Part shown: piece after piece, positions 92 through 26,479 of the stretch
Layout: every line of letters begins with the position of its first letter
How positions within the stretch are numbered: the first letter of the stretch is position 1
Virus record (IMG/VR): IMGVR_UViG_3300027770_000207
Span: 1 to 28,160 of that record
Strand: one strand, 5' to 3'
DNA from: a virus
Taxonomy: Duplodnaviria > Caudoviricetes
DNA: 28,160 nucleotides
Position numbers and translations under genes: made by a program
Notes under the pieces: model-generated
The model's database searches: none
The model's input: only the letters and a program-made list of their open reading frames with translations
What the model was told of the DNA's origin: nothing

Positions 92-1255
92 TCTATTAAT
101 TTATCAAATAATACAATTACAGGTACTCTTGCTCAATTTAATACGGCCGTATCTGATGCTGACTTTGCTTCATTAGCTGGAACAGAAACTTTAACGAATA
201 AAACTATTAGTGGTTCTTCAAACACTTTAACAAATATTGCTAACTCATCTCTAACAAATTCGAGTTTTACATTAGCAGATGACACATCATCAACAACTAC
301 TATAAGTTTAGGTGAAACACTAAAAATTTCAGGAACATCAAACGAAATAGAAACAGTTATATCAGGCGATACAATTACAATTGGATTACCAAGTAGCGTT
401 ACAATAACAAGTAATTTAATAGTAGGTGGTGATTTAACTGTAAATGGCACTACAACTACAATTAATTCTACAACTTTAACCGTAGATGATAAAAATATAG
501 AGTTAGCTTCAGTTGCAACTCCTACAGATGTGACAGCTGATGGAGCTGGTATTACAATCAAAGGAACAACTGATAAAACATTTAATTGGTTAGATGCCAC
601 AGATTCATTTACATCTTCAGAACATATTGATCTTGCTTCTACTAAAGTTTTCAAAATTAATAATTCAACAGTATTATCATCAACACAAGTTTTAGGAAAA
701 TCTGTTCCTTCAGGAACAATTGTAGGTACAAGTGATAGTCAAACATTAACTACTAAAACAATCAGTGGTTCTGATAACACAATTACTAACATTGCAAATT
801 CATCATTAACAAATTCATCATTTACTATTGTAGATGACAGTTCAACAACATCAACTATTTCTTTAGGTGAGGCTTTATTGTTGGCTGGTGGTACAGGTAT
901 TACTTCTGTTATTTCAGGAGATACTGTAACTTTCAATATAGATAGTACAGTAACAACTTTAACAGGTACACAAACATTAACAAATAAAACATTAACAACA
1001 CCAATTATTTCAAGTATCTCAAACACAGGTACACTAACATTACCAACTTCGACAGATACTTTAATTGGCAGAGCAACAACAGATACATTAACAAATAAAA
1101 CATTTACATCTCCTAAAATTAATGAAGATGTAGCCGTAACAGCAACAGCAACAGAATTAAACTATACAGATGGTGTAACATCAGCTATTCAAACACAATT
1201 AGACGCTAGGGCATCAAAAGCTTTTGCCATAGCACAGGCCGTTGCTCTTGGTTAA
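2..1255 (+). CDS. Tail fibre / virion structural protein with Thr/Ser/Asn-rich repeats (5'-truncated)
   Basis: The frame is open from base 2 (SSISNTGTLTLPTSTDTLVGRATTDTLTNK...) into the tracked ORF 530..1255, so 530 is not the true start. Recurrent TLTNKT motifs, C-terminus AFAIAQAVALG, directly upstream of gp13. Confidence 0.75.
   Translation, partial: SSISNTGTLTLPTSTDTLVGRATTDTLTNKSINLSNNTITGTLAQFNTAVSDADFASLAGTETLTNKTISGSSNTLTNIANSSLTNSSFTLADDTSSTTTISLGETLKISGTSNEIETVISGDTITIGLPSSVTITSNLIVGGDLTVNGTTTTINSTTLTVDDKNIELASVATPTDVTADGAGITIKGTTDKTFNWLDATDSFTSSEHIDLASTKVFKINNSTVLSSTQVLGKSVPSGTIVGTSDSQTLTTKTISGSDNTITNIANSSLTNSSFTIVDDSSTTSTISLGEALLLAGGTGITSVISGDTVTFNIDSTVTTLTGTQTLTNKTLTTPIISSISNTGTLTLPTSTDTLIGRATTDTLTNKTFTSPKINEDVAVTATATELNYTDGVTSAIQTQLDARASKAFAIAQAVALG
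188..316 (+). repeat. Internal repeat B of the fibre gene, copy 1 (copy 2 at 743..871)
   Basis: TLTNKTISGSSNTLTNIANSSLTNSSFTLADDTSSTTTISLGE versus TLTTKTISGSDNTITNIANSSLTNSSFTIVDDSSTTSTISLGE. Confidence 0.85.
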
Positions 1256-1261
1256 TACTAT

Positions 1262-1269
1262 TATAAATA
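1262..1269 (+). promoter_or_regulatory. T4-type late (gp55) promoter
   Basis: Exact TATAAATA in the intergenic gap before gp13. Confidence 0.8.
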
Positions 1270-1297
1270 TAGTAAATAAGACTAAAAAAGGTATGAA

Positions 1298-2110
1298 ATG
1301 GCAACACCATCAACACGAGAAACACTAAAACAATACGCTTTACGTTCATTAGGTAAACCAGTTATTGAAATAAATGTGGACAACGATCAAGTCGAAGATC
1401 GTATAGATGAGGCCTTACAATATTACGTTCAATACCATTATGACGGTATAAGAAGAACATACCTTAAATACAAGTTAACACCAGAAGATAAAACAAGACT
1501 TAAATCTCCAGTTCCATTTTCTGAATCTGTTACACAAGATGCTGTTACGACAACTTGGTATGAAGCTAATAATTACCTTGTATGTCCTGAATCAGTAGTT
1601 TCGGTTATCAATATATTTCCATTTTCAGACAAAGCTAATATGAATATGTTTGACGTAAGATACCAATTACGTTTAAACGATTTATATGACTTTGCTTCAA
1701 CATCAATCATTAACTATGATATGGTGTTAAGACATTTAGATTTCTTAGATCAAATTTTAGTAGGTATGAAACCTATACGTTATCAACAACACGATAATAG
1801 ATTATATGTTGATATGGACTGGACAAATGATTTACAAGAAAATGAATATTTAATTATTGAATGTTATCGTAAATTAGATCCTGATTCTTTTCCAAATGTG
1901 TATAATGATATTTGGTTAAAAAGATATGTTACGTCTCAAATAAAAAGACAATGGGGTTCCAACCTTAGTAAATTTAATGGTGTTACAATGATAGGTGGAG
2001 TTACATTAAATGGAGAAAAATTATTTACAGAAGCTCAAACTGAAATAGAAAAACTAGAAAAAGAAATAAGAGACTCTTACGAAATAAGTCCAACTTTTAT
2101 GATGGGGTAA
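1298..2110 (+). CDS. gp13: Neck protein gp13
   Basis: N-terminus LKQYALRSLGKPVIEINV and C-terminal KRQWGSNLSKF..GGVTLNG are typical of T4-like gp13. Synteny gp13-14-15. Confidence 0.92.
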   Translation: MATPSTRETLKQYALRSLGKPVIEINVDNDQVEDRIDEALQYYVQYHYDGIRRTYLKYKLTPEDKTRLKSPVPFSESVTQDAVTTTWYEANNYLVCPESVVSVINIFPFSDKANMNMFDVRYQLRLNDLYDFASTSIINYDMVLRHLDFLDQILVGMKPIRYQQHDNRLYVDMDWTNDLQENEYLIIECYRKLDPDSFPNVYNDIWLKRYVTSQIKRQWGSNLSKFNGVTMIGGVTLNGEKLFTEAQTEIEKLEKEIRDSYEISPTFMMG

Positions 2111-2113
2111 TGT

Positions 2114-2905
2114 ATGCCAGTAAATCATTATTTCCAGGAAGGCAATGGTATAGGAAATCGTGCTGAACAAACACTACACGAAGATTTAATTATAGAAGGC
2201 CTACGTATGTATGGCCACGATGTCTATTATTTACCACGAACACTTGTTAATAAAGATATTATATTAGGTGAAGATGTAGCAAGTAAATTTAATGCTGCTT
2301 TTCCAATTGAAGCATATTTTGAAACATCAGAAGGTTTTGCTGGCCAACAAGAAATAATTAATAAATTTGGTTTAGAAATACGTGAAGATACTACCTTTAT
2401 GATTTCTAAAAGAAGATTTGGCGATTTAGTAAATTCTCGTACAGTATTAATTAAAGAAGGCCGACCAAACGAAGGCGATATACTTTATCTACCTTTAATG
2501 AATAGTTTTTTTGAAATACAGTTTGTAGAAGATCAACAACCATTTTTTCAATTAGGAAATCTACCAGTTTATAAATTAAGAGTCACACGTTGGGAATACA
2601 GTTCAGAAGAATTAAATACAGGTGTTGATGAAATAGATGAAAAAGAGGACGTTTATTCTTTAAGTCAATTAGCTTTCCAAGTTTCATTAGAAAACGAATC
2701 AGGTTCTATGCTGTTAGAAGATGACAGTGTTGATAATGTAACTCAATATATTTTATTAGAAACTTATAGTTTACAAACACAATCAACTTACGCTGCTAAT
2801 AATGATTTAGATAATGAAGCAGGATTTGATACAGCATCAACAGCAGATGATATATTAGATTTTAGTGAAGCAAATCCATTTGGAGATCCAGGAGATTACT
2901 CATAA
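2114..2905 (+). CDS. gp14: Neck protein / head closure gp14
   Basis: GHDVYYLPR, KFGLEIRED, RPNEGD..Y.P, PFFQLG and terminal DFSEANPFG motifs. Confidence 0.92.
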   Translation: MPVNHYFQEGNGIGNRAEQTLHEDLIIEGLRMYGHDVYYLPRTLVNKDIILGEDVASKFNAAFPIEAYFETSEGFAGQQEIINKFGLEIREDTTFMISKRRFGDLVNSRTVLIKEGRPNEGDILYLPLMNSFFEIQFVEDQQPFFQLGNLPVYKLRVTRWEYSSEELNTGVDEIDEKEDVYSLSQLAFQVSLENESGSMLLEDDSVDNVTQYILLETYSLQTQSTYAANNDLDNEAGFDTASTADDILDFSEANPFGDPGDYS

Positions 2906-3708
2906 TGTTTAACGATTATTTCTATAACGAAGGCCTAAGAAAACTTACTGTAGCTTTTGGTACAATTTTTAACAATATACAAGTTAAAAAGGCCGACGCT
3001 AATGGTACATCAATTCAAAGCATACGTGTTCCTTTAGCATACGGACCAAAAGAAAAGTTTATGGTTCGTTTGGATCAACAGGCCAGTTTAGATAGTAGAG
3101 AGTTTGCTGTAGTTTTACCACGTATGAGTTTTGAAATATCAGGTATTGCTTATGACGCTACAAGAAAATTAACAAGAGTGCAAAAATATAAAACAGTTAA
3201 AACAGGTACAACGAATATATTAAATACAAACTACACACCAGTACCTTATAATATAAATTACACATTAAATATATTTACAGCAACGGCTGAAAATGGCCTA
3301 CAAATTGTAGAACAAATATTACCTTATTTTCAACCAGATTATACAATTACCTTAAATATATTAACCAATATGAACATTAAAAGAGATGTGCCGATTATAT
3401 TGAACACTGTAAATTATGAAGATAGTTATAATGGTGACTTTACAACACGTAGAGCTGTCATTTATACATTAAGTTTTACTGCTAAAACATATCTATATGG
3501 GCCAGCAGGTACACAAAAGGTTATCCGTACTGTGCAATCAGACATTTATACAAATACGAATATTACTGAAAAAGCAAGAGAAGAAAGAATTACTATAACT
3601 CCAAATCCAGCAGGTGCTGATGCCAATGATGATTTTGGATTTACAACGACTATACAAAACTTTACAGATGGTAGAGTTTATAGTAAAACAACAGACACGG
3701 ATGAATAA
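2905..3708 (+). CDS. gp15: Tail sheath stabiliser / tail terminator gp15
   Basis: AFGTIFNNI, VPLAYGPKEKF, LPRMSFE, QIVEQILPYFQP, FTAKTYLYGP. Confidence 0.93.
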   Translation: MFNDYFYNEGLRKLTVAFGTIFNNIQVKKADANGTSIQSIRVPLAYGPKEKFMVRLDQQASLDSREFAVVLPRMSFEISGIAYDATRKLTRVQKYKTVKTGTTNILNTNYTPVPYNINYTLNIFTATAENGLQIVEQILPYFQPDYTITLNILTNMNIKRDVPIILNTVNYEDSYNGDFTTRRAVIYTLSFTAKTYLYGPAGTQKVIRTVQSDIYTNTNITEKAREERITITPNPAGADANDDFGFTTTIQNFTDGRVYSKTTDTDE

Positions 3709-3711
3709 ATA
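3704..3711 (+). promoter_or_regulatory. Late promoter variant AATAAATA
   Basis: One mismatch to TATAAATA. Five nt separate it from ATG 3717, with no Shine-Dalgarno (SD). Confidence 0.55.
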
Positions 3712-3716
3712 TAGAT

Positions 3717-5114
3717 ATGCCATTTAATAAGATAGGTACAAAAGGTATTACGGACGGCTCAATAGCTACGGCTGAGTTTGCTGATGGTATAGTTACAAGT
3801 GCTAAATTACAAAATAGTGCTGTTACAAACGTTAAATTAACAAACACAACAGTTTCAGTATCAGGCACTTCTATAACATTAGGAAGTTCTGCTACATTTA
3901 ATAATAAATTTGTGGATTGGCAATCAGTTATCGTTGCTGACGGTTCAACAGGTACAACAGGTGTTTCTGGCCGTGGTTATTTTATTAATACAACTTCAGC
4001 GGCTCATACGTTTACACTACCTGTATCGGCAACAAGAGGTGATAATATATCAATCAAAGATTATGCCGGTACTTTTGCTACTTACAATTTAACAATTGCT
4101 CGTAATGGCCATAACATTCAAGGCGTAGCCAATAATTCTTTAATTTCTACGAATAGGGCCAGTGTTGTATTAGTTTATGTTGATGTAACTCGTGGATGGG
4201 AATTTGTGGAAGAATCTAATGTGGCAAATTTAGGTCAGGCGTTATTTACTTCAGCAACAGGCGGTACAGTAACAACTTCAGGTAATTTTAAGATTCATAC
4301 ATTCACGGGTGATGGAACTTTTGTTGTTTCTCAATTAGGTAATAGTCCTGTGGCACCTACAGGTGGGCCAGCTAATGTAGATTATTTGGTTGTGGCAGGA
4401 GGAGGAGCAGGTCAAAGTTATGCAGGTGGAGGTGGTGCTGGTGGTTATCGTACAACTTTTCCAAGTCCAGGTTGTAATGCAGGATCTTTTCCAATAACAG
4501 CAATAACATATCCAATTACAGTAGGTGGTGGAGGTAGTGCTCCTGGTTCTTTTTCAGCAAATGCTGGTAGTCCTTCAATATTTTCAACTATTACATCTGC
4601 TGGAGGGGGTAGGGGTGGTGGTGCTCCTGATCCTTGCGGTAATGGTGGTTCAGGTGGAGGAGGGGGATCTTCTGCTTATCCTCAAACAGCAGGAACTGGA
4701 AATACTCCGCCTGTAAGTCCTCCACAAGGAAATCCAGGAGGAGCAGGATCTACATCTCCTAATGGAGGTGCTGGTGGTGGAGGAGGTGGAGCAGCATCAT
4801 CAGGATCTGCTGCTTCAGGTTTAAATGGAGGTAACGGTGGATCAGGTTCTACAAATAGTATTTCAGGTAGTCCGGTTGCTTACGCTGGAGGTGGAGGCGG
4901 AGCTCCACAAGGATCTCCTTCTCCAGGAGGAACTCCAGGAACAGGTGGAACTGGTGGGGGAGGGACAGGTGGTCCTCCAGGCGGCAATCAAGGAACGGCA
5001 GGTACATCTAATACAGGAGGAGGTGGAGGAGCTTCTAGTTATGGACCATCAAGTTATCCTGCTGGAGGTGCTGGCGGTAAAGGCATAGTGATAATACGAT
5101 ACAAATTTCAATAA
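3717..5114 (+). CDS. Glycine/proline-rich fibre- or adhesin-like protein (paralog A)
   Basis: Fibre-like N-terminus, middle domain (GRGYFINTTSAAHTFTLP..DYAGTF..GW), then YLVVAGGG..GGGGAGG..GNTPPVSPPQGNPGG..YAGGGGG..NTGGGGG..GGKGIVIIRYKFQ glycine-rich domain. Lies in the late structural cluster. Confidence 0.75.
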   Translation: MPFNKIGTKGITDGSIATAEFADGIVTSAKLQNSAVTNVKLTNTTVSVSGTSITLGSSATFNNKFVDWQSVIVADGSTGTTGVSGRGYFINTTSAAHTFTLPVSATRGDNISIKDYAGTFATYNLTIARNGHNIQGVANNSLISTNRASVVLVYVDVTRGWEFVEESNVANLGQALFTSATGGTVTTSGNFKIHTFTGDGTFVVSQLGNSPVAPTGGPANVDYLVVAGGGAGQSYAGGGGAGGYRTTFPSPGCNAGSFPITAITYPITVGGGGSAPGSFSANAGSPSIFSTITSAGGGRGGGAPDPCGNGGSGGGGGSSAYPQTAGTGNTPPVSPPQGNPGGAGSTSPNGGAGGGGGGAASSGSAASGLNGGNGGSGSTNSISGSPVAYAGGGGGAPQGSPSPGGTPGTGGTGGGGTGGPPGGNQGTAGTSNTGGGGGASSYGPSSYPAGGAGGKGIVIIRYKFQ

Positions 5115-5122
5115 ATATTAAT

Positions 5123-5130
5123 TATAAATA
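5123..5130 (+). promoter_or_regulatory. T4-type late promoter
   Basis: Exact TATAAATA between the two Gly-rich genes. Confidence 0.8.
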
Positions 5131-5148
5131 GAAGAAAGATTTTAGAAT

Positions 5149-6561
5149 ATGGCAATTTCAAAAATAGGTTCAAAAGCATTAGTAGATTGCTCAGTAGCAG
5201 CAGTAGATATTGCTGACAACTCTATAACGGCCGCTAAACTGGCCGGTTCTATAGCAAATGCTAAATTAGCCAATTCATCAGTAACAATTAATAGCACTTC
5301 GGTTTCATTAGGTGGTTCAGCAAACATCAACGCTTTAGATTGGCAATCAGTCATAGTGGCAGATGGTTCAACAGGTACTACTGGCGTGGCCGGTAGAGGT
5401 TATTTTATCAACACTACATCAGCAGCTCACACATTTACTTTGCCAGTATCAGCAACAAGAGGCGATACAATAGCAATCAAAGATTACGCTGGCACTTTTG
5501 CTACTTTTAATTTAACGATAGGTAGAAATGGTCATAACATTCAAGGTGTAGCAAACAACAGTTTAATTTCTACGAATAGAGCTTCGGTTGTTTTAGTTTA
5601 TGTTGATGTTACTCGTGGATGGGAATACGTTACTGAGTCAAATGTGGCCGATTTACAAGTTGTTCAATATGTGGCCGCTACAGGTGGTACAGTAACAACT
5701 TCAGGTTCTTTTAAAATTCATACATTTACAGGTGATAGTACTTTTGTTGTTTCTTGTGCTGGTAATCCTGCAGGTTCTTATCGAGTAGATTATTTAGTTG
5801 TAGCGGGTGGAGCTGGAGGAGGAGGTTCCAATTGTACTGGAGCCGGAGGGGGTGGAGCTGGTGGTTATCGTACAACTTTTCCAAGTCCAGGATGTAATGC
5901 TGGATCTTTTCCTGTAACAGCAACAACTTATCCAATTACAGTAGGAGCTGGAGGCTCTCAAGGTACTATAACTCCTTCGCCAAGTTCAGCAACAAATGGT
6001 GGCGCAGGAAGCAATTCAGTATTTTCAACAATTACTTCAACAGGTGGAGGCGGCGGAGCAAATTATGGTAACTCTCCCGCAGCAGGTTCTGGAGGTTCAG
6101 GAGGTGGATCAAGTTATGCAGGCACTAGAGGAACAGGTAATACTCCGCCAGTAAGTCCTCCGCAAGGAAATCCAGGAGGAGTCGGTGGAACATCCTCACC
6201 AGCTCAAGGAGGAGGAGGTGGTGGTGGAGCAGGATCAGCAGGTTTTGATGCTCCTAATTGTTCTTCAGCAGGCGCTGGAGGAAATGGTTCAACAAATAGT
6301 ATATCAGGTACTCCTACAACTTATGCAGGTGGAGGTGGAGGTGGATTTTATCAAGGACCGTCATCAACAGGAGGAGCAGGAGGGCCAGGTGGTGGAGGCA
6401 GAGGATATGGAGCTAATTTTGGATCTGGTTGTAGTGGAGCAGCTAACACTGGAGGAGGTGGAGGAGGTGGAGGAAGATATGGAAGTCCATTACCAGCATC
6501 TGCAGGATGGGGTGGTAATGGTGGTAAAGGTATAATTATAATAAGATACAAATTCCAATAA
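5149..6561 (+). CDS. Glycine/proline-rich fibre- or adhesin-like protein (paralog B)
   Basis: Same architecture as 3717..5114, with a near-identical middle domain and the same IIRYKFQ end. Confidence 0.75.
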   Translation: MAISKIGSKALVDCSVAAVDIADNSITAAKLAGSIANAKLANSSVTINSTSVSLGGSANINALDWQSVIVADGSTGTTGVAGRGYFINTTSAAHTFTLPVSATRGDTIAIKDYAGTFATFNLTIGRNGHNIQGVANNSLISTNRASVVLVYVDVTRGWEYVTESNVADLQVVQYVAATGGTVTTSGSFKIHTFTGDSTFVVSCAGNPAGSYRVDYLVVAGGAGGGGSNCTGAGGGGAGGYRTTFPSPGCNAGSFPVTATTYPITVGAGGSQGTITPSPSSATNGGAGSNSVFSTITSTGGGGGANYGNSPAAGSGGSGGGSSYAGTRGTGNTPPVSPPQGNPGGVGGTSSPAQGGGGGGGAGSAGFDAPNCSSAGAGGNGSTNSISGTPTTYAGGGGGGFYQGPSSTGGAGGPGGGGRGYGANFGSGCSGAANTGGGGGGGGRYGSPLPASAGWGGNGGKGIIIIRYKFQ

Positions 6562-6571
6562 GAAAAATCGC

Positions 6572-6600
6572 TTTACAAAAGCTTATAAATATGTTATATT
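6572..6600 (+). promoter_or_regulatory. Nested promoter: sigma70-type TTTACA-17bp-TATATT containing late TATAAATA
   Basis: TTTACA 6572-6577, extended -10 TG at 6592-6593, TATATT 6595-6600. TATAAATA at 6584-6591 lies in the spacer. Confidence 0.7.
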
Positions 6601-6620
6601 AATGAAATAGAAATTACATA

Positions 6621-7286
6621 ATGAATCTAAAAAACTACTACTACTATTTTCAATCAGCGTTGTCACCAAAATTGTGTGATGACATTCTCAATTACGGTAA
6701 AAAACATCAAGCCGAAATGGCCGTTACAGGTGGTGTTGAAAATATTATTAAAACAAAAGGTAAGTTAGATAAAAAAGACGTAAAGAATATTCAAAAGAAA
6801 AGAAAATCCGATATTGTTTGGATGAATGATCGTTGGATCTATAAAGAGATTCAACCTTATATTCACGATGCAAATAGATTAGCAGGTTGGAACTTTGATT
6901 GGGATTGGACTGAATCATCTCAATTTACAAAATATGGAATTGGCCAATATTATGGCTGGCATTGTGATAGTTGGGATCAACCTTATCAACGACCTCAAAA
7001 TGCAGATGGCACTTGGCCACCAGATCACGGTAAAATAAGAAAATTATCAGTAACAGTTTCTTTAGTTGACCCATCGGAATATGTTGGAGGAAATTTAGAA
7101 TTTGATTTTAGAAATTCAATGGATACAGAATGGACAAAAGGCAAGACTACAAAAGAGTGTATTGAAATACGACCTCGTGGTTCTATAATTGTTTTTCCAA
7201 GTTTTGTATGGCATCGTGTAACACCAGTAACAAAAGGAACTAGATATTCTTTAGTAATGTGGAATCTAGGATATCCGTTTAGATAA
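6621..7286 (+). CDS. 2OG-Fe(II) oxygenase (PKHD/prolyl-hydroxylase-like)
   Basis: WHCD (HxD), RKLS, YVGGNLEF, FPSFVWHRVTPVTKGTRYSLV. Confidence 0.88.
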   Translation: MNLKNYYYYFQSALSPKLCDDILNYGKKHQAEMAVTGGVENIIKTKGKLDKKDVKNIQKKRKSDIVWMNDRWIYKEIQPYIHDANRLAGWNFDWDWTESSQFTKYGIGQYYGWHCDSWDQPYQRPQNADGTWPPDHGKIRKLSVTVSLVDPSEYVGGNLEFDFRNSMDTEWTKGKTTKECIEIRPRGSIIVFPSFVWHRVTPVTKGTRYSLVMWNLGYPFR

Positions 7287-7298
7287 TAGGAGTATATT

Positions 7299-8000
7299 AT
7301 GGCAATAGTAACAAATGGTAATGATTTAAGAACAGATGTGTATTTTGGCTGCCCAATTTATGTAATTGATAAACCTGAATGGTTAAATTCAACAAACAAA
7401 GTTTGTGATCGATATATAAAAGAGGCCTACGATAGAGAAAAACCTAAAATGAAAGAAAGAGAAAAGTTTTTAGGTAAAAAAGATTTTGCTAAAGTGAAAG
7501 ACCACGGTATGTCTTATCATTCTGGCCCACTTCAAAACGATCCAGGCCTAAAAGATATACAAGACTATATTGGTAATACAGCTTGGAATATAATGGACGG
7601 CCAAGGTTTTGATATGAAACAATATACAATGTTCTTTACTGAATTTTGGGTACAAGAGTTTTCTAAAAATGGTGGTGGCCATCACGACACACATATTCAT
7701 TGGGATAACCATATATCAGGATTTTATTTTCTAAAGTGTTCTGAAAAAACATCTTTTCCATTATTTCACGATCCAAGACCAGGAGCTTTGATGACTAAAC
7801 TACCATTAAAAGATAAATCACAAGTGTCTTTTGGCCAAGATATAGTGAATTATAGGCCGAAACCTGGTACAATGATATTTTTTAATTCATATATGCCACA
7901 TCAATATGCCGTTGATGATGGTGTAGAACCATTTAGGTTTATACATTTTAACATACAGGCAGTAAGAAATATGATAATAGAAGGAGTAAAAAGATTATGA
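7299..8000 (+). CDS. Putative 2OG-Fe(II) oxygenase (TIGR02466-like)
   Basis: W..HDTHIH..ISGFYFL..F.DPRPG..PKPGTMIFFNSYMPH..FN pattern. SD AGGAG upstream. Confidence 0.78.
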   Translation: MAIVTNGNDLRTDVYFGCPIYVIDKPEWLNSTNKVCDRYIKEAYDREKPKMKEREKFLGKKDFAKVKDHGMSYHSGPLQNDPGLKDIQDYIGNTAWNIMDGQGFDMKQYTMFFTEFWVQEFSKNGGGHHDTHIHWDNHISGFYFLKCSEKTSFPLFHDPRPGALMTKLPLKDKSQVSFGQDIVNYRPKPGTMIFFNSYMPHQYAVDDGVEPFRFIHFNIQAVRNMIIEGVKRL

Positions 8001-8659: not shown

Positions 8660-8669
8660 TTTATGATAT

Positions 8670-9239: not shown

Positions 9240-9243
9240 TAAT

Positions 9244-14854: not shown

Positions 14855-14856
14855 TT

Positions 14857-16367: not shown

Positions 16368-16384
16368 TAGTATAGGAGAAAAAT

Positions 16385-16859: not shown

Positions 16860-17111
16860 ATGTCAACAATTATAGTAAAAGGAACTGTTACTACAAATCC
16901 TTTTTTGGATAATATTAGTAGAGCTCAATTTGTTAATTGTGTAGCTACAAGTAATGCTCAAACGATTGAAGTACGTTCTGAAGATAGTACAGTTTTAGGA
17001 GAATTTTATTTACATTTAGCAGGAGATTCTATTACAATAGAAAAAGCTCCTGGAGATGTTATAACTTTGGCTGCTGGAAAAGTTAGCGCTGTAGGTTCTC
17101 CAAGAAGTTAA
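16860..17111 (+). CDS. Hypothetical protein (head cluster)
   Basis: Abuts both neighbours; beta-rich 83 aa. Confidence 0.6.
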   Translation: MSTIIVKGTVTTNPFLDNISRAQFVNCVATSNAQTIEVRSEDSTVLGEFYLHLAGDSITIEKAPGDVITLAAGKVSAVGSPRS

Positions 17112-17113
17112 TT

Positions 17114-17877: not shown

Positions 17878-17879
17878 TT

Positions 17880-17887
17880 TATAAATA
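17880..17887 (+). promoter_or_regulatory. T4-type late promoter
   Basis: Exact TATAAATA before gp21. Confidence 0.8.
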
Positions 17888-17907
17888 GTAAGTAACTAAG
17901 AGGGAAA

Positions 17908-18555: not shown

Positions 18556-18571
18556 TAGAAAAACTAACAAT

Positions 18572-18579
18572 TATAAATA
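18572..18579 (+). promoter_or_regulatory. T4-type late promoter
   Basis: Exact TATAAATA before gp22. Confidence 0.8.
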
Positions 18580-18634
18580 TCACTATAAACGAGATATTTT
18601 TAATTCGAATTAAAAAATAAAGGAGATTTCTCAA

Positions 18635-19699
18635 ATGGCTACAGAAAATAACGTAGAAGTCAAAGCAAATACAATAGTAGAACAAGACACTATTGCTGAT
18701 GCTCCAAAAAAGAATGCTGTGGCAGCTGAAACTAGTCCGCTTAAAAATGAAGCAGAAGATTTAGGTGCAGCCGTTGTTAAAGCAACAGACAGCAATCCTG
18801 ACGCTACAAAAAAATCAAAAAAAGTTTCTGACGCAGTTAACGCTAAAGCAGAAGCAGGCGACGTAAGTGGCAATCCAGATACACAAGCTGGTGTTACTAA
18901 AGTTGATGCTCCAGCAACAGTTAAAACTGAAGAAACTGAAAAAGAAGAAGTAATTGACGTTTCTGATGATGTTAAAGCATTAATCGGAGATGAAAAATTA
19001 ACAGAAGAATTTAAGGCAAAAGCTGCAACTATATTTGAAGCTGCTATCAGATCAAAAATGAAAGTAGAAAAATCAAAAATGGAAGCTGGTTATGCAAAAA
19101 AACTTAAAGAAGAACTTGATACAACTAAAACAGAACTTGTTGAAAAAGTTGATTCATACTTAAACTACGTAGTTGAAGAATGGATGAAACAAAACGAGAT
19201 CGCTGTTGAAAGAGGTATTAAAGGCGAAATCGCTGAGGACTTTATCAGTGGTCTTAAAAAATTATTTGAAGATCATTACATAAACGTACCAGACGAAAAA
19301 TATGACGTGTTAGAAGATCAAGCTTCTAAAATCGAAGAGCTTAACAAGAAATTGAACGAGCAAATCGACGCTAACGTTAAATTAAATTCTGAAATTGGTA
19401 AATTAACAAGACAAGATATAGTTGACTCTGTATCTTCTAGTCTTACTGATACTAACAAAGAAAAGTTTAACAAATTAGCTGAAGAAATTGAATACACTAA
19501 CGCTGATGAGTTTAAGAAAAAAGTATCGACTATTAAAGAGTCATACTTTTCAACAAAAGAAATTTCATCTAATAATGAAATAGATAACGTTGCCGAAGGC
19601 GAGACTACAGACAATGTAGATTTGTCAAACGCTATGACTGCTTACACGGCCGCTATCACTAAAACAAAGAACTCAATTAAATTGGGTTCAAAAAAATAA
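18635..19699 (+). CDS. gp22: Prohead core scaffold protein gp22
   Basis: EEFKAKAATIFEAA, VDSYLNYVVEEWM, GLKKLFEDHYI, IKESYF. Lies between gp21 and gp23. Confidence 0.93.
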   Translation: MATENNVEVKANTIVEQDTIADAPKKNAVAAETSPLKNEAEDLGAAVVKATDSNPDATKKSKKVSDAVNAKAEAGDVSGNPDTQAGVTKVDAPATVKTEETEKEEVIDVSDDVKALIGDEKLTEEFKAKAATIFEAAIRSKMKVEKSKMEAGYAKKLKEELDTTKTELVEKVDSYLNYVVEEWMKQNEIAVERGIKGEIAEDFISGLKKLFEDHYINVPDEKYDVLEDQASKIEELNKKLNEQIDANVKLNSEIGKLTRQDIVDSVSSSLTDTNKEKFNKLAEEIEYTNADEFKKKVSTIKESYFSTKEISSNNEIDNVAEGETTDNVDLSNAMTAYTAAITKTKNSIKLGSKK

Positions 19700-19717
19700 A
19701 GGGAGAATAAAAAAGAT

Positions 19718-21076
19718 ATGTACTTATCTGAACAACTAGTTAAAAAGTGGTCACCGGTCCTTGAACATCCAGAACTCCCAAAAGTTACGGATAGTTATAA
19801 AAGAGCGGTTACTGCTGTTATCTTGGAAAACCAAGAAAGAGCATTAAGAGAAGATAGAGCATTCATCAATGAATCTGCTCCGCAGAACTCAACTGATGCT
19901 TCTTACGTACAAAATTGGGATCCAATCCTAATTTCTTTAGTAAGAAGAGCGATGCCAAATCTTATCGCATACGACATAGCAGGCGTACAGCCTATGACTG
20001 GTCCAACTGGACTAATCTTCGCTATGAGAGCAAAATACGCTTCACAAGCAGGAACAGAAGCTTTATTCAATGAAGCTGATACTGATTATTCTGCTAGAAA
20101 CGCAGCTGGCGACTCTACTTTAGGTGGTGTTGACGGTTTAGGTGGTGGCCAAACAGGTACTAACCCAGCGTTGTTAAACGACAGCCCAGCTGGCGCTTAT
20201 ACAGCACAAGGTGGTATGGCTACTTCAACTGCTGAAGCTCTAGGTGATGCTTCAAATAATAGCTTTTCTGAAATGGCTTTTTCAATCGAGAAATCGACTG
20301 TAACTGCTAAATCAAGAGCTCTTAAAGCTGAATACACAATGGAACTTGCACAAGACCTTAAAGCAATTCACGGTTTGGATGCTGAGACAGAATTAGCAAA
20401 TATTCTATCTTCTGAAATCCTTTCTGAGATCAATAGAGAGATCGTAAGAACTATCTATATCGTTGCTGAAAAAGGTGCTTCTGCTAACACAGGTACTGTA
20501 AATACAACAACTGAAGGTATTTTCGATTTAGACACAGACTCTAACGGAAGATGGTCAGTTGAAAGATTTAAAGGACTAATGTTCCAAGTAGAAAGAGAAG
20601 CTAACGCTATCGCTCAAAGAACACGTAGAGGAAAAGGTAACATTCTGATAACTTCTTCAGATGTCGCTTCTGCTTTACAAATGGCTGGTGTATTAGATTA
20701 CGCTCCTGCTTTAAACAACAACTTACAAGTTGATGATACAGGAAATACGTTTGCTGGAATCCTTAATGGAAGATATAAAGTTTATATCGATCCATATTCT
20801 GCAAACCAAGCAGCTAAACAATACTTTGTAGTTGGATATAAAGGATCATCTCAGTATGATGCCGGTATATTCTATTGCCCATACGTTCCACTTCAAATGG
20901 TGAGAGCTGTTGGTCAAGATAATTTTCAACCTAAAATTGGATTCAAAACAAGATACGGAATCCAAGCTAACCCATTCGCTGAAAACTCAGGTTCAGGCGC
21001 AGCGGTTATCAACGGTGCTGGAAATATCAACTCAAACAGATACTACAGACGAGTACAAGTAGCTAACATTATGTAA
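19718..21076 (+). CDS. gp23: Major capsid protein gp23
   Basis: GVQPMTGPTGLIFAMR, KSRALKAEYTMELAQDLKAIHGLDAE, FYCPYVPLQM, FQPKIGFKTRYG. Confidence 0.99.
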   Translation: MYLSEQLVKKWSPVLEHPELPKVTDSYKRAVTAVILENQERALREDRAFINESAPQNSTDASYVQNWDPILISLVRRAMPNLIAYDIAGVQPMTGPTGLIFAMRAKYASQAGTEALFNEADTDYSARNAAGDSTLGGVDGLGGGQTGTNPALLNDSPAGAYTAQGGMATSTAEALGDASNNSFSEMAFSIEKSTVTAKSRALKAEYTMELAQDLKAIHGLDAETELANILSSEILSEINREIVRTIYIVAEKGASANTGTVNTTTEGIFDLDTDSNGRWSVERFKGLMFQVEREANAIAQRTRRGKGNILITSSDVASALQMAGVLDYAPALNNNLQVDDTGNTFAGILNGRYKVYIDPYSANQAAKQYFVVGYKGSSQYDAGIFYCPYVPLQMVRAVGQDNFQPKIGFKTRYGIQANPFAENSGSGAAVINGAGNINSNRYYRRVQVANIM

Positions 21077-21105
21077 GCTAGTTGTTACTTCTTAGTAACA
21101 CGATT

Positions 21106-21137
21106 AAAGGGAGAGTGTAAAAACTCTCCCTTTTTTT
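21106..21137 (+). terminator. Intrinsic terminator after gp23
   Basis: AAAGGGAGAGT-gtaaaa-ACTCTCCCTTT followed by TTTT. Confidence 0.9.
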
Positions 21138-21140
21138 ATG

Positions 21141-21148
21141 CCTAAATA
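21141..21148 (+). promoter_or_regulatory. Late promoter variant CCTAAATA
   Basis: Retains the TAAATA core right after the terminator, 5 nt before the gp3 ATG. Confidence 0.55.
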
Positions 21149-21153
21149 TTAAT

Positions 21154-21780
21154 ATGACTGTTACAAACTCATATTTAAGACAACCTACAAAATTGGACTA
21201 TGCTAGTCCTACTCAATTTAAGTTTAGTATAATTAAATTACCTAAAGTTGAATACTTTTGTACGGCCATTAATCTTCCAGGAATTTCAATAGGATTTTCA
21301 GAACAAGTTACACCTTTGATAGATATACCATATCCTGGTGAAAAAATGAAGTACCAAGATTTAACTATGACATTTATGGTAGATGAAAATTTACAAAACT
21401 ACCAAGAAATTCACGGTTGGTTAGTTGGCCTAGGTTTTCCTAGAGACCACGATCAATATAAAAATCTATTAAATGCCTCTATTGATCGTTTTCCTACATC
21501 AAAAGGAAGTACAAGTAAAGAACCAGGAAAAGTTAAATACGGTACACCTAGTCAAGGTGGTTCATTTTCTGATGCCACACTTACAATACTATCAGCAAAG
21601 AACAATCCAGTAACGGAGATTCGATTTAAAGATGTGTTTCCTGTCAGTTTAGGCGGCCTATCTTACAATCAACAGGCTACGGATGTTAACTATCTTTCTG
21701 TTGATGTTACTTTTAAATATACTGTATATGAATTTGCTTCTACAGTAGGTTCATCAACAACGGCCGTTACTACAACATAG
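21154..21780 (+). CDS. gp3: Tail tube terminator / tail completion protein gp3
   Basis: SPTQFKF.I.KLPKVEYFC, PG.K..Y.DL..F.VDENLQNY.EIH.W, SDATL.IL, F.D.FP.SL. Confidence 0.88.
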   Translation: MTVTNSYLRQPTKLDYASPTQFKFSIIKLPKVEYFCTAINLPGISIGFSEQVTPLIDIPYPGEKMKYQDLTMTFMVDENLQNYQEIHGWLVGLGFPRDHDQYKNLLNASIDRFPTSKGSTSKEPGKVKYGTPSQGGSFSDATLTILSAKNNPVTEIRFKDVFPVSLGGLSYNQQATDVNYLSVDVTFKYTVYEFASTVGSSTTAVTTT

Positions 21781-21781
21781 G

Positions 21782-21810
21782 TTGATTTTTTTATAATTTT
21801 GTGATATAAT
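21782..21810 (+). promoter_or_regulatory. sigma70-type promoter for uvsY
   Basis: TTGATT 21782-21787, 17-bp spacer, TG at 21802-21803, TATAAT 21805-21810. Confidence 0.8.
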
Positions 21811-21816
21811 TAGATT

Positions 21817-22245
21817 ATGGATTTAGAACAATTACAATTAGAAGCAGACAAAGACCTTAAAATTAATGATACCGAATTAGATTTGGAATCATTAAAAACT
21901 CCACAGTTACATAACAAGTATATGAAACATTATACTAAGTTTAAATTACTTCTTACACGTACAGAAGATGAACTAAGAATATTAAGACGTGATAAATGGG
22001 AATATTACACAGGTAAATCAGCTCCTCAAATTTATCAATTAAAACCTTTTAACTTTAAAATATTAAAAACAGACGTTGACAAATATTTAGAATCTGATGA
22101 AGATATACAAAAGCTAACTCAAAAGGTGGCCTATTTAAATGTTGTTGTTGACTTTCTGGATAAAACTTTAAGAGTCATAGTTAATCGAACATACACTATA
22201 AAAAATGCCATAGAGTGGCGTAGATTTACAAGCGGCGCCGTTTAA
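21817..22245 (+). CDS. uvsY: Recombination mediator UvsY
   Basis: LDLESLKTPQLHNKY, KWEYYTGK, RTYTIKNAIEWRRF. gp3-uvsY-uvsW synteny. Confidence 0.92.
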   Translation: MDLEQLQLEADKDLKINDTELDLESLKTPQLHNKYMKHYTKFKLLLTRTEDELRILRRDKWEYYTGKSAPQIYQLKPFNFKILKTDVDKYLESDEDIQKLTQKVAYLNVVVDFLDKTLRVIVNRTYTIKNAIEWRRFTSGAV

Positions 22246-22805
22246 TGTACTTGGAAAATAATCACTGTATTTCTAATGGATATTTTGATAGAAAATACTG
22301 TGATGAAATTATTTCTCAAGCAGAAACATCTAAACTTCATATGGCTAAAGTACAAGATGGTTTGAATATAAACAGAAAATCAAAAATTACTTGGTTAACA
22401 AATGATAAGTTAAATAAGAATATAAACGAAATTATTTTAGATCACAATAAAAAGGCCAAATGGAATTTTGTTTTAAAAGAATTTGAACCACTACAATATA
22501 CAGTTTATGAAACAAACGATCATTATGATTGGCATATAGATAGTCATAGTAAACCATACCCTAATGGTTACATAAGAAAAATAAGTTTTACATTATGTTT
22601 AAATGAAAATTATGAAGGAGGAGAATTTGAAATATCAAGTCCAAATCCAAAACCAGAAAAACATATTAATACTAAGTTTAATGATAAGTTTACATTAGGA
22701 ACAGTTATATCATTTCCATCTTTTGTTTGGCATAAAGTAAATCCTGTCACAAGTGGTACAAGAAAAGTATTAGTAGGTTGGTCAGTAGGCCCACAATTTA
22801 TTTAA
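22245..22805 (+). CDS. 2OG-Fe(II) oxygenase (same family as 6621..7286)
   Basis: LQYTVY..HYDWHID, RKISF, YEGGEFE, FPSFVWHKVNPVTSGTRKVLVGW. Confidence 0.88.
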   Translation: MYLENNHCISNGYFDRKYCDEIISQAETSKLHMAKVQDGLNINRKSKITWLTNDKLNKNINEIILDHNKKAKWNFVLKEFEPLQYTVYETNDHYDWHIDSHSKPYPNGYIRKISFTLCLNENYEGGEFEISSPNPKPEKHINTKFNDKFTLGTVISFPSFVWHKVNPVTSGTRKVLVGWSVGPQFI

Positions 22806-22810
22806 TACGT

Positions 22811-24331
22811 ATGACATTAACAAAATATATTATTATAGATAAGAAGAACGAAGTATATCTTAAAATAGAAGCTGAAGAATCTCTACGTAGAGAATTATCT
22901 CAATATTTTGAGTTTGAAGTTCCTGGTTATAGATTTACTCCTCAATTTAGAAACAAATGGTGGGACGGTAAAATAAGATTATTCTCCTATGCTACTGGCC
23001 AAATATTTGCTGGCCTTTATCCATATATTGTTAAATGGTGTGAAGATAACAAAGTACAAGTTGTTGATGGTACTAAAATAAAAGATATAGAAGTAGATAA
23101 AAAATTAGTAGATAAATTTGTAACTGGTTTAAAGATACCAATGGAATTAAGAGATTATCAGAAACAAGCCTTTATACACTCATTAGAAAAAACACGTTGT
23201 TTACTATTGTCGCCTACGGCCTCTGGTAAATCATTAATAGTTTATCTATTAGTGAGATTTAATTTGTTAAGATTAAAAGATAAACCAAATAATAAGATAT
23301 TAATTATAGTACCAACCACATCATTAGTAGAACAGTTATTTAAAGATTTTAAAGATTACGGTTGGAATCCTGATAAAAATGTACATAGAATATATCAAGG
23401 ACACGATAAAGAAACAGATAAGAATGTGATTATATCTACTTGGCAATCTATCTATAATATGCCTAAGAAATGGTTTAAATCATTTGGTGTTGTTATTGGT
23501 GATGAGTGTCATTTGTTTAAGGCCGTTTCTTTAAGTAAGATAATGACTAAACTTGAAGATTGTAAATATAGAATAGGTCTTACAGGTACTTTAGATGGTA
23601 CTAAGACTAACAAGTTGGTTTTAGAAGGCCTGTTTGGTGCCGTTAATAAAGTTACATCAACTGCTGAACTACAAGAGAAAAAACAATTGGCCGATTTGAA
23701 AATTATATGTTTAATACTTCAACACGATAAAAATTCTAAACACTTTTTAAAAGATAAAAGTTACCAAGAAGAAATGGATTTTCTAGTGTCTAATGAAAAG
23801 AGAAACAAATATATTCGTAATCTATGTTTAAGTTTACAAGGCAATTCTTTAGTATTGTTTCAATATGTAGAAAAACACGGTGTTATATTAAAACAACTTA
23901 TAGAAGATAAAGCTGAAGATAAGAAAATATTTTTCGTTTATGGTGGTGTAGAAGCAGAAGAAAGAGAGAAGATACGATTTATAACTGAGAAGTCAGACAA
24001 TGCAATTATAATCGCCAGTTACGGAACGTTTAGTACTGGTATTAATATAAGAAATTTACATAACATTGTTTTTGCTAGTCCAAGTAAATCACGTATTCGT
24101 AATTTACAATCTATTGGTAGGGGTCTAAGATTAAAAGATGATAATTCGGCCGCTACTTTATATGATATTGCTGATGATTTAAGTTATAATGGTAAAGAGA
24201 ATTATACTCTACAACATTTTAGAGAAAGAATAAACATTTATACTTCTGAAAACTTTAACTACGAAATACATAACATAGAACTCATAAATAGTAATAACAA
24301 TGGAACAAATAAAAATAATAAAGCTGATTAA
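22811..24331 (+). CDS. uvsW: RNA-DNA/DNA helicase UvsW
   Basis: WDGKIRLF, LRDYQ, SPTASGKS, GDECH, GLTGT, FSTGINI, LQSIGRGLR. ATG 22811 preferred to TTG 22778. Confidence 0.95.
   Translation: MTLTKYIIIDKKNEVYLKIEAEESLRRELSQYFEFEVPGYRFTPQFRNKWWDGKIRLFSYATGQIFAGLYPYIVKWCEDNKVQVVDGTKIKDIEVDKKLVDKFVTGLKIPMELRDYQKQAFIHSLEKTRCLLLSPTASGKSLIVYLLVRFNLLRLKDKPNNKILIIVPTTSLVEQLFKDFKDYGWNPDKNVHRIYQGHDKETDKNVIISTWQSIYNMPKKWFKSFGVVIGDECHLFKAVSLSKIMTKLEDCKYRIGLTGTLDGTKTNKLVLEGLFGAVNKVTSTAELQEKKQLADLKIICLILQHDKNSKHFLKDKSYQEEMDFLVSNEKRNKYIRNLCLSLQGNSLVLFQYVEKHGVILKQLIEDKAEDKKIFFVYGGVEAEEREKIRFITEKSDNAIIIASYGTFSTGINIRNLHNIVFASPSKSRIRNLQSIGRGLRLKDDNSAATLYDIADDLSYNGKENYTLQHFRERINIYTSENFNYEIHNIELINSNNNGTNKNNKAD
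24283..24290 (+). promoter_or_regulatory. Late promoter variant CATAAATA inside the uvsW 3' end
   Basis: One mismatch to consensus, 9 nt before ATG 24300. Confidence 0.45.
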
Positions 24332-24707
24332 CGGCGATGACATTGTTTGTAGTCTGGCTAAAGAACAATTGCCAGATAAAACTCCATTGTTACGTATAGA
24401 TAAGCCGTTACAGATTAAATACGTATCTCAATTAACAGCAAAAGGCCTTAAAGATTATATTGCTCTTATTAAATGGGCTGCCTATACTAATGATAAGATT
24501 ATAACTATTCCAAAAGATAAAATCGTTACAATTACAAATGCCACCGAAGAAATGACTAAGAGTTATATAGAAGTATCTAAGAAGTATGAAAAGATAGTGG
24601 TGCCAAAAAGAAGTGAACATAATATTGAACAATTAAGTGAGGAAGAAAATAATGAGTTTAATGAATTGTGGGACGAGTTTAGAGATATTAGAAAAACCAT
24701 CCATTAA
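24300..24707 (+). CDS. Conserved hypothetical between uvsW and gp55 (possible Sm-like fold)
   Basis: IKIIKLINGDDIVC N-terminus and acidic tail. Fold assignment is inference. Confidence 0.65.
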   Translation: MEQIKIIKLINGDDIVCSLAKEQLPDKTPLLRIDKPLQIKYVSQLTAKGLKDYIALIKWAAYTNDKIITIPKDKIVTITNATEEMTKSYIEVSKKYEKIVVPKRSEHNIEQLSEEENNEFNELWDEFRDIRKTIH

Positions 24708-24742
24708 TCTGGAGTATTCTATATCAAAGAGGCGACACCCCC

Positions 24743-24770
24743 ATTATACAGATAAAAAGAATAAAGTCAA
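24743..24770 (-). promoter_or_regulatory. Antisense sigma70-type promoter
   Basis: Minus strand reads TTGACT-16bp-TATAAT followed by GGGGGTGTCGCC. Confidence 0.65.
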
Positions 24771-24813
24771 CCCATCCTGGAACCGACTTTTTTCATAGTC
24801 TTTGTATAAGTGA

Positions 24814-24842
24814 TTGACAAACAACACAAAGTGTAGTATATT
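24814..24842 (+). promoter_or_regulatory. sigma70-type promoter for gp55-gp47-gp46
   Basis: TTGACA 24814-24819, 17-bp spacer, TATATT 24837-24842. Confidence 0.8.
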
Positions 24843-24848
24843 TAAATA

Positions 24849-25430
24849 ATGACAACATCAAAAAAATCAAAAGAACATTACGTAAGTAATAAAGATTTTT
24901 TGGCCGCAATGATTGAATATAAAAAAACAGTCAAACAATCGGTTAAAGAAGGCATAACAAAGCCAAGAGTACCTGATTATATCGGCACTTGTTTTTTAAA
25001 AATAGCAAATCACTTATCATATAGACCGAATTTTATTAACTATACATTTAGAGATGATATGATTTCTGATGGTATAGAAAACTGTTTACAATACTTAGAT
25101 AACTTTAATCCAGATAAATCAAATAATCCATTTGCTTACTTTACACAGATTATATATTATGCTTTTATAAGAAGAATACAAAAAGAAAAGAAACAAGTAA
25201 CAATCAAGCATAAGATGTTATTAGATTCTAATTTTGATGATATGGCTTTACAACCAGGAGAAGATAGGGAATTTCATAATCAGTTTACAGAATTTTTAAA
25301 GAAAAACTTGCCAATAGAAGAAGTACCTAAGATTGAAAGTTTGGTTCATCATAGAGAGATGAAAAAAGAAAAAGAAAGAAAAAAGAAAAGAACACGTAAA
25401 GGCAAGTTAGATTATTTTATTGGTGTATGA
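24849..25430 (+). CDS. gp55: Late transcription sigma factor gp55
   Basis: HYVSNKDF, FLKIANHLSYRPNFINYTFRDDMISDGIENCLQY, NPFAYFTQI. C-terminal LDYF resembles the T4 clamp-binding LDFL motif. Confidence 0.96.
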   Translation: MTTSKKSKEHYVSNKDFLAAMIEYKKTVKQSVKEGITKPRVPDYIGTCFLKIANHLSYRPNFINYTFRDDMISDGIENCLQYLDNFNPDKSNNPFAYFTQIIYYAFIRRIQKEKKQVTIKHKMLLDSNFDDMALQPGEDREFHNQFTEFLKKNLPIEEVPKIESLVHHREMKKEKERKKKRTRKGKLDYFIGV

Positions 25431-26479
25431 AAATAGCGTTGATTAACGATACGCATTGGGGAGCCAGAAATGACTCACCAGCGTTTATAAATTATTTTAA
25501 TAGATTTTATGATGAGGTTTTCTTTTCTTATCTACAAGATAATAATATAAACACATTAATACACTTAGGTGATGTAGTAGATAGAAGAAAGTTTATTAAT
25601 CACAATACAGCTTATAATTTTAAATTAAAGTTTTGGGACAAAGTTGAACAACTAAAATTAGATACACATATATTATTAGGAAATCACGATACCTATTATA
25701 AGAATACAAACACAGTAAATGCTTTACAAAATTTAAATCTACCTAAAAACACAAAAATATATACATCACACGACACAGTATCTTTTGATGGTTTAGAAAT
25801 ATTATTCTTACCTTGGATTTGTGATGATTTAGTTGAAAGCTCATTACACACTATTGATAATTCAACAGCACAAATTGTTATGGGACATTTAGAAATAAAA
25901 GGATTTGAAATGCACAAAGGCCACCTTAACGAACAAGGTTTGGATAAGTCATTATTTAAAAGATTTGAAAAGGTTATATCAGGACACTTTCATAAAAAAT
26001 CAGATGATGGTCATATCTATTATCTAGGAGCTCCTTATGAAATTACGTGGTCAGATTACAAATGTCCAAAAGGATTTCACATATTTGATACACAAACAAG
26101 AGAATTGACCAGAATACCTAATCCACTAAGAGTACATAAGAAATTGGTTTATAATGACAAACAAGAAGATTATTCTAAAAAGAACTTAAAAGATTTTGAA
26201 AATACTTTTGTTAAATTGTTTATATCTAATAAAACAGATATAGATATGTTTGATAAATTTGTGGAAAGATTTCACAACGAAATAAATGTACACGAACTAA
26301 ACATTATAGAGGATTTAAATAGTGATATTACGTCTAGCGTAAGAGAGGACATATTAGAACAAGGAGAAGATACATTAACATTTTTAGGCAATTATATAGA
26401 TCAGATAGATACTAAACTAGACAAAAACAAACTTAAAAAATTTGCTAAAGAACTTTATGCGGAGGCTAGTGAAACTTGA
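25427..26479 (+). CDS. gp47: Recombination nuclease subunit gp47 (Mre11/SbcD-like)
   Basis: DTHWG, LGDVVDRRK, GNHD, GHLE, SGHFH metallophosphoesterase motifs. Confidence 0.96.
   Translation: MKIALINDTHWGARNDSPAFINYFNRFYDEVFFSYLQDNNINTLIHLGDVVDRRKFINHNTAYNFKLKFWDKVEQLKLDTHILLGNHDTYYKNTNTVNALQNLNLPKNTKIYTSHDTVSFDGLEILFLPWICDDLVESSLHTIDNSTAQIVMGHLEIKGFEMHKGHLNEQGLDKSLFKRFEKVISGHFHKKSDDGHIYYLGAPYEITWSDYKCPKGFHIFDTQTRELTRIPNPLRVHKKLVYNDKQEDYSKKNLKDFENTFVKLFISNKTDIDMFDKFVERFHNEINVHELNIIEDLNSDITSSVREDILEQGEDTLTFLGNYIDQIDTKLDKNKLKKFAKELYAEASET

Follow-up and report, generated by a model that had tools for sequence, protein, structure and literature searches.

Clade-wide GGCC excess in T4-like lake phages and its possible link to phage-encoded DNA modification

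We analysed a 28,160-nucleotide stretch of virus record IMGVR_UViG_3300027770_000207 (hereafter the window, meaning this whole stretch), in which the palindrome GGCC is strongly over-represented. The window is the neck-to-gp46 segment of a T4-like lake phage that is kin to Pelagibacter phage Mosig. Its major capsid protein gp23 (19718..21076, plus strand) is 75.8% identical to that of Mosig, 70.8% to that of Melnitz and 68.6% to that of HTVC008M, which places the phage as a T4-like relative of the Kyanoviridae. The recombination nuclease gp47 (25427..26479, plus strand) is the marker that puts the window in a GGCC-rich clade, clade A below. It is followed by gp46 (26473..28160, plus strand), which is truncated at the window end; in relatives, the first of two slots held by DruA or CmoX genes lies about 1 kb further on. 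Sixteen proteins were scanned for families, 14 of them products of window open reading frames (ORFs) not recognisable as T4 core genes, while visual inspection and synteny with Mosig identified the remaining window ORFs as T4 structural or recombination genes. No DNA methyltransferase family appeared among the 16, in line with the original prediction, which had seen none in the window.

GGCC occurs 75 times between positions 145 and 25922, with a mean gap of 348 bp, and the other GC-only palindromes compared are far scarcer (CCGG 9, GCGC 11). The original prediction, counting by eye, had given 74, about 9 and about 11. All 75 sites lie in coding sequence, in the frames GGC/C (36), xxG/GCC (31) and xGG/CC (8), where the slash is the codon boundary. 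As the null we shuffled synonymous codons with the proteins fixed, in 1000 rounds. Drawing codons from a genome-wide pool gave 20.1 ± 3.7 expected sites (maximum 32; z 14.6), and shuffling within genes gave 23.9 ± 3.9 (maximum 36; z 13.2). GGCC ranked first of the 256 tetramers in the codon shuffle, so Gly and Ala content does not explain the excess. The over-representation originally proposed is thus borne out, although the expectation of about 15 offered with it was somewhat low. The silent nature of the choice can be read from the two glycine-rich fibre paralogues (3717-5114 and 5149-6561, both plus strand). As had been pointed out, Asn-Gly-His is AAT GGC CAT in the first (4104..4112, plus strand; GGCC at 4107) and AAT GGT CAT, with no site, in the second (5527..5535, plus strand); Asn-Arg-Ala is likewise AAT AGG GCC in the first (4152..4160, plus strand; GGCC at 4157) and AAT AGA GCT in the second (5575..5583, plus strand).

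Twenty sequencing runs, drawn from about 17 studies and carrying the labels freshwater, lake water or simply metagenome, contain the stretch, and contigs from four runs span 29-30 of the 30 bins of the window; the GGCC excess is therefore not an assembly artefact. Kinship, habitat and low GC make a freshwater SAR11 host a reasonable guess. The host search gave only distant gp23 matches in genome bins and, for S21, just ~50% to the SAR11-type order.

The excess is heritable by clade. In a gp47 tree of 125 rows the window falls within the 20-row clade A (support 99), every row of which exceeds its GGCC expectation (1.6-4.4x). A separate clade B of nine rows is also rich (2.4x), as is a small clade C, whereas the Mosig-like remainder of the tree stands at 1.26x and the sisters bearing a C5 methyltransferase (C5-MTase) at 1.18x and 0.8x. 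By walking overlapping contigs we assembled 84 kb of clade A sequence free of overlaps, which held 163 GGCC against 56 expected (2.9x, z 18.6); the early-gene region was mostly 2-3x enriched. Clade A carries 21 sites per 10 kb and relatives 5-8. Among named relatives, with 100-140 kb each, observed/expected ratios were 1.13 for Mosig, 1.07 for Melnitz and 0.22 for HTVC008M. Of 80 capsid loci found, 69 were at least 4 kb long and were analysed, and GGCC was the top-ranked word in four. In a wider set of 459 loci of at least 4 kb, the thresholds of 2x and z 4 were attained by GGCC in 102 and by the other 15 four-base palindromes in none. Those loci overlap, repeat contigs and were retrieved with clade A queries, so 102/459 shows the uniqueness of the word and not its natural frequency. 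One mosaic contig (loci L047, L205 and L359) is GGCC-neutral at gp23-gp47 (14 vs 12) and rich round the polymerase (19 vs 8), and its polymerase groups with clade A.

We then dissected which bases of the site are favoured. In clades A and B, Gly GG[C]C stood at 0.33-0.48 compared with 0.11-0.16 in neutral groups, and G-GC[C] at 0.27-0.37 compared with 0.09-0.12; [G]GCC stood at 0.37-0.58, compared with 0.10-0.12 in neutral groups. The inner and both outer positions are therefore favoured, with A and T both dropping. Very-short-patch repair of the Vsr type acts at one cytosine position and makes a T-to-C change only, so it does not fit this pattern. Among extensions, GGCCG/CGGCC showed the strongest enrichment in clade A (4.6-5.8x, compared with 2.6-3.1x for A or T), and CGGCCG itself occurred 8 times vs 1.0 and 17 times vs 1.2; GGCCC is absent from clade B and the Mosig-like group. 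No longer obligatory motif was found round GGCC. Spacing was random (coefficient of variation 1.01, P = 0.23 against opportunity sites), none of 10 loci being more even than chance at P < 0.05, and no strand-skew change or footprint was seen across GGCC sites.

Gene trees gave the direction of change. Compared with matched contexts, clade A gained GGCC 1.7-3.7 times as fast and lost it at 0.3-0.7 of the rate. Loss at GGC[C] was 4.1 on recent branches and 1.4 on old ones (P = 0.01), and on short branches 79 losses were counted against 77 expected (x1.03). Losses that are unslowed on short branches and lower on old ones point to selection or transmission bias rather than mutation shielding, and the rate pattern as a whole suggests that such a force is weak.

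Two DruA/DUF4338 genes lie just outside the window, DruA-1 in the slot after gp46 and DruA-2 in the slot after DNA polymerase. A single contig (G001) links the clade A gp47, DruA-1, the polymerase and DruA-2, and the window's gp47 is identical across the tree's 349 columns to that of locus L082, which extends into the first DruA-like gene. DruA-2 is known from clade contigs, not from this phage itself. Clade A copies are found at L095:10453-11760 (DruA-1) and L306:5596-6699 (DruA-2). Both proteins score as PF14236, and only PF14236 (DruA) reached E <= 0.05; DruA-2 did not score as a member of the Pfam Mom family PF25680, had no match among PDB sequences, and in an atlas search retrieved DruA clusters only. 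DUF4338 has been described as a GNAT domain (in the available text of PMC10853773). All 50 of the matches listed for the predicted DruA-2 model were GNAT-type acyltransferases (Z 5.5-6.7), phage Mu Mom among them (Z 6.0, root-mean-square deviation 3.6, 106 residues aligned), and DruA-2 is accordingly predicted, on modelling, to have a GNAT (Mom-like) fold. In cyanophages, DruA-2 homologues adjoin the clamp loader gene gp62 on its upstream side, where Syn9 has a DmtB-like methyltransferase, and one such homologue is annotated 'methylcarbamoylase mom'. The neutral DruA-2 carriers form a single nested clade in the DruA-2 tree. GGCC was rich in 38 of 72 DruA-2 loci and in none of 84 C5-bearing loci.

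The two slots offer a natural gene swap. In relatives, the slot after gp46 holds either DruA-1 or a C5-MTase, and the slot after DNA polymerase either DruA-2 or a C5-MTase with a CmoA-like gene. CmoX carboxymethylates the cytosine of GpC and is distinguished by an SPPC motif and Arg350 (available part of PMC12783734). The swapped C5-MTase is 62% identical to an S-B43 gene flanked by methyltransferase and asparagine synthase genes, and all three proteins aligned retain S95-P96-P97-C98 and R350. A CmoA-like gene adjoins it in L419, L421 and L423 (TIGR00740, E 7e-38, under the equivalog cut-off); in L113/L232 CmoA is not next to the C5-MTase. On motif, arginine and adjacent CmoA, the swapped enzyme is probably CmoX. 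Such genes occur in SAR11-type phages at L423:1044-2868 and L419:547-2374 (polymerase slot, with CmoA) and at L113:11802-12935, and L703:1-390 resembles, by eye only, the end of an asparagine-synthase (CmoY-like) gene.

Three CmoX carriers placed within clade A by their recA had fewer GGCC than expected from orthologous genes: L419 had 4 vs 11.6, L421 8 vs 13.5 (alone, P = 0.08) and G012 7 vs 21.9. L419 and G012 together had 11 vs 33.5 (P = 6 × 10−6, or 9 × 10−5 with L421 in place of L419; Poisson, relatedness ignored); as L419 and L421 are sisters, the swap amounts to two lineages. Density follows the same order, from 21 GGCC per 10 kb in clade A to 6.8 in the CmoX carriers within it and 5.1 in a freshwater CmoX sister group, and the CmoX phage S-B43 holds 0.22 of its expectation. 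The freshwater CmoX lineage L113/L232 is mildly enriched for ACGT (53 vs 32; 58 vs 37), a word missing altogether from other lineages.

Our tentative interpretation, held at somewhat less than even confidence, is that GGCC is the target of a base modification made by a phage-encoded DruA protein and that modified sites are weakly favoured. Because DruA trades places with two enzymes known or likely to modify cytosine, we infer that it modifies DNA. One of the two proteins beyond the window with a predicted GNAT (Mom-like) fold would modify GGCC, the clade A and B alleles recognising the site and most likely acting on its GpC cytosine, which is also the CmoX target. Each modified GGCC would be slightly advantageous, so that sites would build up at silent positions across the genome; the benefit might be per-site protection against a host nuclease, or heteroduplexes in recombination might be resolved towards the modified strand. 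With CmoX in the slot every GpC would be marked, GGCC would lose its special value, and the excess would decay. A broader proposition strikes us as rather doubtful: that phage DruA/DUF4338 proteins are unrecognised acyltransferases that modify cytosine in DNA and can be exchanged for CmoX or DmtB-like enzymes, one allele marking GGCC and the word spreading by selection or modification-biased gene conversion, as a phage HIP1 with a non-methyl mark. Of the process first proposed for this DNA, the sequence-directed character, the synonymous positions and the tie to DNA modification have held up; a methylase was not encountered in the clade fragments searched, and Vsr-type repair does not fit.

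A number of observations weigh against DruA marking of GGCC. Carriage of DruA is not sufficient: GGCC is not rich in 34 of the 72 loci with DruA-2 or in 85 of the 104 with DruA-1, HTVC008M carries both genes yet avoids GGCC (0.22), and the carriers S-SSM7 and DSL-LC02 stand at 0.80 and 1.37, so an allele-specific target or a change of specificity must be assumed. The DruA-1 tree fails to group the GGCC-rich clades and distant DruA-1 carriers are neutral or depleted, and DruA-1 was rejected as the sole cause. The DruA-2 model is weak (pLDDT 57, pTM 0.46), and its fold matches stay under Z 8, with Mom level with unrelated GNATs. The swap consists of short stretches in two lineages, their recA placement may reflect recombination, and a cost of CmoX would account for the result just as well. 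On short branches gains hardly exceed expectation (36 vs 27.8, x1.3, P = 0.08). The contrast between recent and old losses is significant in only one of three contexts, a control clade has a similar tendency (P = 0.13), and requiring a conserved flank lowers apparent rates. Parsimony in clade A counts 127 losses and 85 gains, so some lineages may be decaying. Modification in these phages usually accompanies avoidance, as with low TGCA near a D12 methyltransferase. Finally, the genome-wide claim covers 84 kb; the genes for baseplate and tail, which judging from Mosig take up ~60 kb, lie outside it.

The strong rival, which we nonetheless think unlikely, is that an unseen phage or host factor (a methylase, a nickase or a binding protein) reads GGCC and that DruA is merely a lineage marker. 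The insufficiency of DruA speaks for it, as do a C5-MTase over cut-off, of any specificity, in 64 of 301 SAR11-type order genomes and the hypervariable, family-less nuclease-like genes of the clade. The S-adenosylmethionine (SAM) decarboxylase gene also tracks richness (32/39 loci), because it marks clade A. Yet the searched fragments of clades A and B, which are 7-47% complete, yielded no C5, N4/N6, HaeIII-like or DmtB-like gene, the HaeIII-like and DmtB-like searches being run without a positive control; the HaeIII-like m5C or m4C methylase suggested at the outset was thus not encountered there. Nor did the RE_HaeIII nuclease profile match in the clade fragments, again in a search without a positive control. 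DNA of the SAR11-type order is neutral for GGCC (48 vs 45.4; 17 vs 12.5), and a host factor alone does not account for near-identical CmoX carriers being poorer. In cyanobacteria the GGCC methylase belongs to the D12 family (PMC4390886 and PMC6105098, as far as their available text goes), and a DmtB-like enzyme was rejected as the cause, with enrichment in 0 of 21 carrier loci and 0 of 2 named phages: observed/expected was 0.08 in Mic1, 0.15 in Syn9, 0.05-1.05 in 12 close loci and 0.17-1.09 in nine distant ones. The identity of the DmtB query follows from a second conserved cyanobacterial D12 group and not from a named record. The clade's own D12 methylase (P0001), which shares just 25-28% identity with the likely DmtB group, looked promising over six loci (1.8-3.4x) and was ruled out over 59, where TGCA was low in most and GGCC ranged from rich to depleted; it was not found in G001, G008, G011 or G013. 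An MT-A70 methylase was set aside because it is present in rich and neutral loci and missing from some rich ones, and a Mom-family gene because it is patchy (8 of 13 carrier loci GGCC-rich).

Less probable still is a neutral excess. Here a site-creating repair or mutation bias, of the kind Elhai proposed for HIP1 (available text of PMC4390886), would turn near-sites into GGCC with no gain to the phage, and the excess would decay once CmoX arrives or the process is lost. Random spacing and high site turnover agree with this, and when one context is compared between clade A and the Mosig-like group, outer-base gain is higher in clade A (1.15 vs 0.18) with loss unchanged (1.6 vs 1.6). A mutational process should, however, appear on the shortest branches, where gains and losses are close to expectation, and no strand-skew footprint was seen at the sites. 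We give little credence to host phosphorothioation at GpsGCC, under which more sites would bring more self marks or antioxidant sulfur. GpsGCC is a motif of Dnd systems, the GGCCG/CGGCC preference of clade A resembles the Streptomyces lividans consensus, and dndC occurs in the SAR11-type order; but dndC passes its cut-off in just four of 401 order genomes (G044, G054, G116 and G201, each with a complete-looking dnd cluster), the proteins of three dnd regions match no phage loci, and the 3'-G preference is also seen in a neutral group (1.9x vs 1.2-1.3x). Hardly to be entertained is an incidental excess, arising from avoidance of other words or from loss of CC to UV outside the GG-CC context. 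Codons with CC are indeed rare except GCC (ACC 19, TCC 6, CCC 2, GCC 67), and AGCT and TGCA are depleted. Absolute density is nevertheless raised, H-GC[C] is at background, and relatives avoiding the same words are GGCC-neutral; density and H-GC[C] largely refute this explanation.

Other palindromes show the reverse tendency. In the whole window (1..28160) CATG is absent (38 expected), CGCG is absent and TGCA occurs 26 times against 77 expected; the absence of CATG and CGCG is ordinary restriction-site avoidance beside the GGCC excess. CGCG is absent nearly everywhere in the window and in loci L001-L471, and across those loci each sub-lineage is without a different set of palindromes (CATG, ACGT, GATC, TCGA, GTAC, AGCT, TGCA), possibly a fingerprint of host restriction systems. 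Carriers of P0001 (L368:3756-4580; also L532-L590) are mostly without TGCA, and the enzyme is likely TGCA-specific, which would make this a phage that methylates a site and avoids it as well.

The surrounding gene content has further features. Five Pfam-matched 2-oxoglutarate-Fe(II) oxygenase genes lie amid structural genes of the window (6621-10502, 22245-22805), and the ORF at 7997-8659 resembles them without a Pfam match. Beyond the window, a true Mom-family gene (PF25680, E 2e-51) immediately precedes the DNA polymerase gene in some members of clade A (L333:563-1348), such genes occurring in 13 related loci, and a third, short DruA-like gene is present at L374:5342-5905. The SAM decarboxylase (L306:6774-7226) was seen right after DruA-2 or CmoX-CmoA, in clade A loci only, and could be an amine source for hypermodification. 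In the slot after Hsp20, ParB/DGQHR-like and HNH proteins alternate with the D12 methylase (L185:10669-12051, L162:8176-9795, L382:631-2043). The slot after the helicase is hypervariable, with unrelated proteins of 390-470 amino acids that have no Pfam or NCBIfam family and are possibly nucleases (L405:776-2197, L415:6442-7725, L417:2504-3685, L422:525-1808, L430:2526-3806). One phage locus encodes a Tsp45I-like type II restriction endonuclease (L087:13320-14147, E 4e-97).

Phage genomes would be expected to lose short palindromes, and carriers of GGCC-type methylases do so too. A heritable, genome-wide gain of one palindrome in common lake and sea phages implies that something rewards the site. 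Why words of the HIP1 type accumulate is a long-standing question. It is testable here, since related contigs number in the hundreds, gene swaps have occurred naturally, and the candidate enzyme is small and can be cloned. If DruA does mark GGCC, this would be the first function for the domain, and possibly a new DNA base.

GGCC in these phages resembles cyanobacterial HIP1 and the alternate HIPs (as described in the available text of PMC4390886) in being a GC-rich palindrome that is genome-wide, lineage-specific and linked to modification, with the outer bases involved. Unlike HIP1, it is 4 bp long, about 3x enriched and in phage, and its candidate enzyme is a predicted GNAT; the methyltransferase link of HIP fails here for DmtB-like carriers. 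Over-representation beyond coding constraints, the mark of a HIP-type word, was found genome-wide outside the baseplate and tail region. As no cognate methylase was found in the fragments searched, we describe GGCC as working like HIP1 without assigning it to that family. Mom of phage Mu is a GNAT-fold DNA modifier (PF25680) that modifies adenine. DruA-2 is like it in its predicted fold, in being phage-encoded among DNA-modification genes and in having a homologue annotated mom, and unlike it in that DruA-1 and DruA-2 score PF14236, not PF25680, and that GGCC lacks adenine. We met no site enrichment for Mu in the literature searched, and no report of phage GGCC enrichment or of DruA as a DNA modifier, although subscription papers and supplements may bear on this; the available text of PMC12570018 merely lists GGCC among common methylase motifs of sea-ice bacteria.

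The closest parallels in position are CmoX/CmoA/CmoY (available text of PMC12783734), which occupy the same genomic slots in sister phages and whose GpC cytosine is the centre of GGCC. Unlike DruA, CmoX is the slot alternative whose carriers are GGCC-poor. The GGm4CC methylase M.Ssp6803II/DmtB (available text of PMC6105098) shares the word, belongs to the D12 family and has a likely homologue in the equivalent slot of Syn9; unlike DruA, DmtB did not turn up in the clade fragments searched, and DmtB-like carriers avoid GGCC or are neutral. A strand signal of the Dam/MutH type would involve a site-specific nickase and a strand-skew footprint; no change of skew was seen across GGCC. Phages commonly avoid restriction sites. 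The same genome does so for CATG, CGCG and TGCA, and GGCC goes the opposite way.

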